Positions 60,839 through 61,258 of a stretch of 64,000 bases of DNA are shown here, one piece after another; position 1 is the first letter of the stretch; every line of letters starts with the position of its first letter. The DNA comes from Naegleria gruberi (Eukaryota). Where the stretch lies: assembly GCA_000004985.1 (NCBI GenBank), contig GG738856.1; one strand, written 5' to 3'. The notes below the pieces were generated by a model, which was not told the origin of the DNA, ran no database searches, and saw only the letters and a program-made list of their open reading frames with translations. Position numbers and translations under genes: made by a program.

Positions 60839-61258
60839 TTAATGACAATTCTTTTTACGAATTTCTTTCAAAATTTTGATCAAATTGTTCAACTTTTTGA
60901 TTGCGTCATGATGTTTGGAATGTTTACAATATTTCAAGACCTTTCTAATATATCTTCTCAAACTCTTCAATTTCTTAATCTTCAATTTGATTGATTTCTT
61001 TAAAATCTTTTCGAGTTTCTTCTTTAACTTTGCATCTTTACAATTTCCAATTTTGGCAACTAATTTGTAAATGTGTTTACATTTGCTTCCCTTCTTAAAC
61101 TTTGAATTGAATTTCTTGACTGCACCTCCATGTGATGAACGATTTTTCTTGATGGACATGACTTGAGCTTGAAGAGTTTGTGCTTGACCGTTGACATTTG
61201 CAATGAAATAAATGCCAGCCATCAAGACTAGCAAAAACAAGAGAAGTGATTGTTTCAT
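60839..61258 (-). CDS. Secreted, extremely lysine-rich small protein (139 aa) with a signal peptide and 4 Cys. Candidate cationic, membrane-active antimicrobial-like peptide.
   Basis: 'MKQSLLLFLLVLMAGIYFIANVNG' is a signal peptide. The mature part 'KKLEKILKKSIKLKIKKLKSLRRYIRKVLKYCKHSKHH...' forms amphipathic cationic helices. The cysteines sit in the contexts KCKH, GNCKD, KYCKH and KKNCH. Confidence 0.55.
   Translation of the reverse strand: MKQSLLLFLLVLMAGIYFIANVNGQAQTLQAQVMSIKKNRSSHGGAVKKFNSKFKKGSKCKHIYKLVAKIGNCKDAKLKKKLEKILKKSIKLKIKKLKSLRRYIRKVLKYCKHSKHHDAIKKLNNLIKILKEIRKKNCH

Follow-up and report, generated by a model that had tools for sequence, protein, structure and literature searches.

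A candidate secreted, Lys-rich helical polycation encoded by an orphan gene of Naegleria gruberi

What might a small, very Lys-rich protein with a hydrophobic N-terminus do in an amoeba that feeds on bacteria? This question is raised by a gene on the minus strand at positions 60839 to 61258 of a 64,000-nucleotide (nt) stretch of the Naegleria gruberi genome (contig GG738856.1 of assembly GCA_000004985.1; the whole stretch is called the window here). The initial annotation had proposed the product as a candidate membrane-active or antibacterial effector of a bacterivorous amoeba, and N. gruberi is indeed a bacterivorous amoeboflagellate. Our tentative reading is that the product would be a polycation of the secretory pathway that binds bacterial envelopes and permeabilizes them as cationic alpha-helical host-defense peptides do. 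We regard this complete reading as plausible rather than probable. Signal cleavage, disulfides, location, target and killing activity are inferred here, not observed.

The predicted signal peptide and the cationic mature part

The open reading frame (ORF) exactly matched XP_002679884.1 (EFC47140.1, UniProt D2V896, NAEGRDRAFT_65076) of N. gruberi in an exact-sequence look-up. This gene model is already public but uncharacterized, with 'predicted protein' as its sole annotation. The features of the ORF are as follows.

60839..61258, minus strand: complete single-exon coding sequence (CDS) including the TAA stop, 139 amino acids (aa); from ATG to TAA and translation
61187..61258, minus strand: residues 1-24, MKQSLLLFLLVLMAGIYFIANVNG, predicted signal peptide (or, less likely, a type II signal anchor); from hydropathy and a rule-based reading
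61079..61186, minus strand: residues 25-60, Gln/Ser/Gly/Lys-rich, predicted disordered; predicted local distance difference test (pLDDT) score <50 for mature residues 1-36
60842..61078, minus strand: residues 61-139, predicted polycationic amphipathic helical core with C73, C111 and C138; from the structure model and the hydrophobicity spectrum
61274..61276, minus strand: in-frame TAA, 18 nt upstream of the ATG; from direct sequence reading

The signal-peptide reading was rule-based, using the n/h/c layout and the residues at positions -3 and -1. Residues 1-24 include a basic n-region (K2) and a hydrophobic core of 16-19 residues, with a Kyte-Doolittle 19-mer mean of up to 2.38; the hydrophobic stretch as a whole is S4-V22 (19 residues). 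Hydropathy reached 2.91 in the N-terminal 15-mer, and the other 15-mers of the protein peaked at 0.34. By the residues at -3 (V) and -1 (G), cleavage would be expected between G24 and Q25, or else after A26. The 12 residues past the hydrophobic core are uncharged. Together with the basic n-region, this favors an N-in orientation in which the C-terminal part is translocated. Perhaps the segment stays as a type II anchor instead of being cleaved, an outcome to which we give a real but minor share. In the cleaved and the anchored form alike, the cationic domain would face the lumen or the outside. The Cys residues are even in number (four) and all lie within the predicted exported part.

Three other modes of anchoring or retention were considered and rejected. 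A signal anchor of the mitochondrial outer membrane did not fit because there are no basic residues in the 5 residues following the hydrophobic segment. The C-terminus is hydrophilic, which is incompatible with a glycosylphosphatidylinositol anchor, and its ending (...RKKNCH) is unsuitable for KKXX or KDEL retrieval.

Could the start codon be wrong? In-frame Met residues also occur at positions 13 and 34, and a prokaryote-style gene caller placed the start at M13 on a metagenome contig from a second strain (described below). Translation from M13 or M34, or a hydrophobic segment that is not used for targeting to the endoplasmic reticulum (ER), would yield an intracellular basic protein (nuclear, nucleolar or ribosome-associated). 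The Lys-rich composition, with many clusters resembling nuclear localization signals, would fit such a protein, as would a weak, non-significant similarity to the ribosomal protein eL33 (E = 2.2). However, only the ATG of M1 is preceded by an A-rich context, CAAAACAAA, which M13 and M34 lack, so that scanning ribosomes would be expected to initiate at M1, except on a transcript whose 5' end lies within the ORF. Extension of the ORF in the 5' direction is impossible because of the upstream in-frame TAA at 61274-61276. The hydrophobic N-terminus is far above chance and keeps its character between strains (F8L), and four Cys spaced through helices suit an oxidizing compartment. There was no Pfam match to linker histone (Linker_histone), HMG or any ribosomal family. 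Pro is absent from the whole protein and the mature part has little Ala (6 residues), unlike H1 tails. Its absence from the chromatin-proteomics supplements searched is a further, weak argument. Linker histone H1 or another nuclear basic protein was rejected on the Pfam result, the composition and the hydrophobic N-terminus, and a ribosomal protein was rejected on the missing Pfam match, the E-value of eL33 and the lack of a homologue in an exhaustive search (see below). A nuclear or ribosomal protein with a wrong start, which the initial annotation had named as the outcome that would overturn it, is thus not favored, and we consider an intracellular basic protein very unlikely.

The mature part (115 aa from Q25) contains 34 Lys and 5 Arg (33.9%), close to the approximate 35% given in the initial annotation. 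Acidic residues are limited to 2 Asp and 2 Glu; the net charge is +35 and the isoelectric point (pI) is 10.6. KK, KR and RR sites are many. The segment of residues 25-60 closes with C60; the only N-x-S sequon of the protein is at N39. The Cys residues are at 60, 73, 111 and 138, with the spacing C-x12-C-x37-C-x26-C.

Helical structure was predicted for most of the remainder. In an AlphaFold2 model, run on the single sequence without an alignment, helices covered full-length residues 61-71, 76-114 and 117-137, with pLDDT of 71-88 over much of the core; overall, the model is of low confidence (pLDDT 63.6, predicted template modelling score, pTM, 0.35). In the predicted topology C60 and C138 could approach each other, and C73 and C111 would be far apart unless the long helix bends. 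In the hydrophobicity spectrum, residues 75-114 peaked at 100 degrees and residues 116-138 at 105-115 degrees. For residues 60-139, 18-residue hydrophobic moments at 100 degrees averaged 0.44, compared with 0.26 +/- 0.05 in 5000 composition-matched shuffles of the residues of the protein (p = 0.0012), and the maximum moment was 0.76 (p = 0.0056). The same computation gave 0.89 for LL-37, 0.66 for cecropin A, 0.55 for melittin and 0.51 for magainin 2. The initial annotation had quoted residues 80-110 (KKLEKILKKSIKLKIKKLKSLRRYIRKVLKY) as an example of long amphipathic Lys/Leu/Ile helices; this description, the signal-peptide-like N-terminus and the four spaced Cys were all borne out. The analysis of charge and helical periodicity that it had suggested gave the values above, with p of about 0.001 for periodicity.

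These features are consistent with the following route. The nascent chain would enter the ER through the N-terminal signal peptide, and the product, a polycation of ~13 kDa, would end up free in the lumen of the secretory or endolysosomal system or be exported from the cell; either place is an oxidizing space and would suit the four Cys. In the mature protein, a basic and flexible N-terminal stretch would precede a core built of two long Lys/Leu/Ile helices. These helices would be amphipathic, each with one purely Lys/Arg face and one Leu/Ile/Val/Tyr face, and they would probably form a hairpin stapled by one or two disulfides. Electrostatic capture of polyanionic surfaces would come first, foremost bacterial envelopes (lipopolysaccharide, teichoic acids and anionic phospholipids) that a bacterivore meets in the phagosome or the medium. 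The hydrophobic faces would then insert into the membrane and permeabilize it in the manner of cecropin or LL-37. More speculatively, the di- and tri-basic sites could permit cleavage into shorter active peptides.

Evidence that the ORF is a gene

The target is the sole ORF in a 1046-bp gap between two plus-strand genes. Markov simulations that kept the local composition produced an ATG-initiated ORF of 139 aa or more in a gap of this size with a probability of about 0.0005-0.001. The simulated sequence held 29 chance ORFs of such length per 12 Mb on both strands. A few dozen chance ORFs of at least 139 aa would thus be present per genome, so that length alone is not decisive. Short frames that look like a signal followed by poly-Lys also arise by chance in this AT-rich genome. 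For example, a spurious 55-aa frame inside a CobW gene of the window (56728-56895, minus strand) has a hydrophobic start and then KRKKKKKRKKMKLKIK. For this reason the target was compared with simulated ORFs of at least 100 aa (n = 386). Not one had a Lys plus Arg fraction of at least 0.29, and none matched either the N-terminal hydropathy of 2.91 or the amphipathicity of 0.44; 0.5% were like the target in lacking a second hydrophobic stretch.

Codon usage was gene-like. The log-likelihood per codon was 0.189 for the target and 0.28 +/- 0.07 (minimum 0.138) for the long ORFs of the window. The spurious overlapping ORFs in other frames (n = 18) scored -0.03 +/- 0.12, with a maximum of 0.177, all below the target. 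The G+C content at third codon positions (GC3) was 0.36, above that of all 14 reference ORFs (0.21-0.34), although the gene lies in the most AT-rich part of the window. GTC was used for 5 of 6 Val codons, compared with 10% in the long ORFs of the window. The raised GC3 and the GTC preference may reflect translational selection. Ribosomal or other highly expressed genes were sought in the window to calibrate optimal codons and none was found, so this is only a hint. There were no tandem repeats or low-complexity DNA inside the ORF that could underlie the Lys richness.

The locus was also found in a second N. gruberi-like strain, ~1-3% divergent, on contig k127_547476 of the ENA metagenome ERZ929261, which was compared over positions 59571-64000 of the window. 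In a global alignment the target ORF was intact there, with 3 substitutions in 420 bp and no indels. Two of the changes are synonymous and one is conservative (F8L), inside the hydrophobic core of the signal, with hydrophobicity kept. Adjacent CDSs were likewise free of indels and had substitutions at 1.0-1.3% of positions. Pooled over 1083 bp, the three intergenic spacers had 33 substitutions and 10 indel events, of which 15 substitutions and 5 indel events were in the spacer 61259-61622. The spacer indel rate (~1 per 100 bp) predicts ~3.9 events in the 420-bp ORF, and the probability of zero is about 0.02. This evidence for constraint is thin, as there are only 3 substitutions in total and the ORF evolves no more slowly than the 3' spacer; the small sample and the slow spacer make the strain comparison supporting evidence and not proof.

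No relative of the protein was detected. Exhaustive phmmer of 1.84 billion representative proteins and a word-seeded search of 5.8 billion proteins each returned only the copy from the other strain. The N. gruberi proteome was included in these collections, so there is no detectable paralogue either. The genome-wide search for paralogues that the initial annotation had proposed was in effect performed in this way, and it yielded neither paralogue nor orthologue. JGI metagenome contigs and IMG/VR viral contigs contained no homologue. Among PDB sequences there was no significant match (eL33 was the best), and Foldseek of the low-confidence model against the PDB returned nothing at E <= 0.001 and no saposin fold. 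In hmmscan against Pfam at E <= 10, only MitMem_reg (E 0.15) and DUF3666 (E 1.4) appeared, both far below their cut-offs. The locus matched no Rfam family significantly; the best, snoZ5, had E 0.73 and 23.6 bits against a gathering score of 60.

The absence extended to the corresponding position in related genomes. On the side of the 3' spacer the gene order is conserved: orthologues of a CobW GTPase gene that lies 3.4 kb from the target exist in N. lovaniensis, N. fowleri and Willaertia magna, and the order CobW, ~466-aa gene, 220-aa transmembrane (TM) protein gene is kept in N. fowleri and N. lovaniensis. In these two relatives the TM protein ends in ...RLRTNPRDYMPQQDLPREF, which matches ...RLRANPKDYIPQQDLPREF in the window. 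Collinearity ends exactly at this gene, which adjoins the target. Beyond it, N. lovaniensis carries a glycosyltransferase-8 gene and N. fowleri has a 1.7-kb gap in which no Lys-rich or signal-bearing ORF was found. A tblastn search with filters off found no counterpart of the target at the syntenic loci of N. fowleri, N. lovaniensis and Willaertia; the best match (E = 0.31, in Willaertia) was rejected as chance because the site has no ORF. When the gap region was compared with these loci by blastn, the matches were short and attributable to chance. On these comparisons the gene is an orphan of the N. gruberi lineage located at a synteny break. Species-specific genes without known function are numerous in Naegleria (PMC9928731), so orphan status alone is unremarkable.

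The ORF might be functionless, either because its annotation is an artefact or because it arose de novo very recently and has little or no transcription. This would agree with the lack of a homologue, a paralogue or a positional counterpart, with the location exactly at the synteny break, with the number of chance ORFs of this length expected per genome and with the ease with which AT-rich DNA yields Lys-rich and Leu/Phe/Ile-rich frames, as at 56728-56895. It would also agree with the expression record, as the gene identifiers were found neither in the paper texts searched nor in the accessible supplements of Naegleria omics papers. Failure to appear in proteomes carries no information, since trypsin would reduce so Lys-rich a protein to very short peptides. 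On the other side, no random ORF among the 386 matched the target in charge, N-terminal hydrophobicity or amphipathicity, let alone in all three. The amphipathic periodicity exceeds that of shuffles, codon usage is gene-like with raised GC3, the frame is intact and indel-free in the second strain, and no repeats or low-complexity DNA underlie its Lys content. We therefore consider a functionless ORF unlikely, and the ORF is very probably a real, selected coding sequence.

Comparison with known effectors and the weight of the proposed function

Among the means by which amoebae kill prey are membrane-active proteins, secreted or lysosomal, such as the naegleriapores and Dictyostelium AplD (PMC7561387, PMC5890168), and Naegleria possesses saposin-like pore-forming proteins (PMC9928731). 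The saposin-like proteins (SAPLIPs) of bacterivorous amoebae are small, all-helical proteins with disulfides that are secreted or lysosomal and act on membranes, and the target as predicted here would resemble them in these respects. The target is far more basic. Assignment to this family (naegleriapore, amoebapore, NK-lysin) was rejected because the protein has four Cys instead of the six-Cys, three-disulfide pattern in a domain of ~80 aa, and because neither SapB_1 nor SapB_2 of Pfam matched even at E <= 10. The statement in the initial annotation that the protein is unlike saposin-type amoebapores agrees with the Cys spacing of 12/37/26 and with the lack of a SapB profile match. Cys-stabilized hairpins (twin CX3C or CX9C, and alpha-hairpinins) were likewise rejected on these spacings. 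The predicted hairpin also recalls cytosolic proteins in which two long antiparallel helices carry a basic surface turned to the membrane; unlike the target as predicted, these have neither a signal peptide nor disulfides.

Cecropins, magainins and LL-37 share with the target, as it is predicted here, a signal peptide, a Lys-rich cationic composition and helices with a cationic and a hydrophobic face, and the maximum moment of the target (0.76) lies between those of LL-37 and cecropin A. There is no sequence kinship. In contrast to their 20-40 aa, the mature target has 115 aa; it contains four Cys, its charge density (+35) is far higher and it lacks an anionic pro-region. Among the features that define cationic amphipathic alpha-helical antimicrobial peptides (AMPs), it has the charge, the predicted amphipathic helix and, by the rule-based reading, the signal peptide, but not the short size (~12-50 aa) unless it is processed further.

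Secreted cationic peptides confined to a single lineage have repeatedly turned out to be antimicrobial effectors. Arminin and periculin of Hydra (PMC10945409) illustrate this, and they show that such effectors frequently lack homologues. Like the target, these are products of orphan genes of one lineage in which a highly cationic region comes after a signal peptide (a predicted one in the target), and periculin has Cys too (PMC10945409). The sequences are unrelated, and arminin has an anionic pro-region and an active peptide of ~31 aa. The Hydra genes are backed by data on expression and activity, whereas the target is a candidate. Arminin and periculin are the nearest conceptual parallel to the target gene. 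If its function were confirmed, the target would found a family of its own, unrelated to earlier ones, within an established class of effectors.

Several points weigh against an antibacterial effector. The mature protein of 115 aa is far larger than classical linear AMPs, and its sequence offers no anionic pro-piece that could neutralize it during storage. The signal core is long (16-19 residues) and could persist as a membrane anchor. In the low-confidence model the amphipathic faces pack against one another and are buried, as any helical hairpin would have it. Amphipathic helices are also ordinary in soluble helical bundles. With a charge of +35 the protein would attach to polyanions of any kind, whether nucleic acids, polyphosphate or glycans that are sulfated or acidic, so the data do not call for membrane lysis. 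To these are added the thin between-strain constraint and the negative search for expression records described above.

In another explanation, the protein is a secreted or surface-tethered polyanion binder that is not lytic, its N-terminal segment being either cleaved or kept as a type II anchor. It could serve as an electrostatic adhesin, in prey capture or substrate adhesion, or it could scaffold or condense an anionic polymer, for example extracellular DNA, polyphosphate or material of the cyst wall or glycocalyx. The charge and topology data fit this explanation as well as they fit an antibacterial effector. The 19 residues of S4-V22 would suffice to span a membrane as an anchor, the size is on the large side for an AMP, no pro-piece is present that could neutralize the charge, and the predicted fold is a generic helical hairpin with its hydrophobic faces packed together. 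However, a good -3/-1 cleavage motif (V-N-G before Q) stands behind the hydrophobic core, the sequence points to no specific ligand, and the strict amphipathic Lys/Leu/Ile design exceeds what simple polyanion binding needs. On balance, a non-lytic polyanion binder is possible without being likely.

The envelope-permeabilizing polycation can also be stated in a bolder form: a species-restricted, possibly de novo gene whose product would be a disulfide-stapled helical hairpin of ~13 kDa and +35 net charge that captures and permeabilizes bacterial prey in the phagosome or medium. It would have no kinship with SAPLIPs or any AMP family known, and would be the first antimicrobial family of the Heterolobosea outside the SAPLIPs. 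Judged from the sequence features given here, this form is doubtful.

The neighborhood of the gene and its possible meaning

The features flanking the target are as follows.

60578..60838, no strand: 3' spacer, convergent with the conserved TM-protein gene; from ORF layout
3' end at 60577, plus strand: conserved TM-protein gene, 220 aa; from synteny with N. fowleri and N. lovaniensis
61259..61622, no strand: 5' spacer, divergent with the F-box gene; presumed promoter and 5' untranslated region; from ORF layout
61623-62078, plus strand: F-box gene; from an F-box Pfam match

The conserved three-gene block occupies 56192-60577. It comprises the CobW GTPase gene, a gene of ~450-467 aa without a Pfam domain and the multi-exon gene for the 220-aa TM protein ending ...PQQDLPREF, and it is collinear with loci L002 (6320-11284) and L003 (6183-11293) of N. 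lovaniensis and N. fowleri. At 52902-56171 on the minus strand is a gene for a 1089-aa protein with 19 DUF4116 repeats (Pfam E = 1.3e-187). In Willaertia, a gene for a DUF4116-containing kinase lies close to the CobW orthologue.

On the other side, the spacer that separates the target from the F-box gene (61259-61623) contains an additional ~250 bp in the second strain. The F-box gene differs between the strains by 5 non-synonymous and 1 synonymous changes, which indicates that it evolves fast. A gene for an FAD-dependent monooxygenase (62536-63870, plus strand) adjoins it. None of the matches of this protein was an orthologue in N. fowleri or N. lovaniensis; there was one N. gruberi paralogue (47% identity), and the other named homologues were mostly from Chlamydiae, Legionella and bdelloid rotifers. 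From this distribution, the monooxygenase gene looks like a horizontal acquisition. Taken together, this gene, the orphan and the synteny break suggest that the segment is a lineage-specific insertion.

Elsewhere in the window, a run of 50 N at 32740-32789 marks an assembly gap, and tRNA genes were found for Val-AAC (28745-28818, minus strand), Gly-GCC (30564-30634, minus strand) and Trp-CCA (46637-46707, plus strand). The neighboring ORFs at 27710-28558 and 29024-29638, both on the plus strand, gave two family matches as a pair: one of them matched the T2SSE family of bacterial type II/IV secretion ATPases (E = 5e-7), and the second family was microbial-type poly(ADP-ribose) glycohydrolase (E = 1e-10). 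The T2SSE-matching ORF may be the GspE-like component of the mitochondrial system derived from the type II secretion system that has been reported in Naegleria.

If the orphan gene is not expressed, it exemplifies the 'predicted proteins' of uncertain standing that are found in the annotation of AT-rich protist genomes. For Naegleria, the saposin-like naegleriapores are the effectors commonly named as antimicrobial. If the gene is expressed and its product is active, Naegleria would have a second, unrelated class of membrane-active or bacteria-binding effector. The proposed function, if true, would provide a new cationic helical scaffold for peptide design and would add another case of prey-killing or defense molecules born as lineage-restricted orphan genes.

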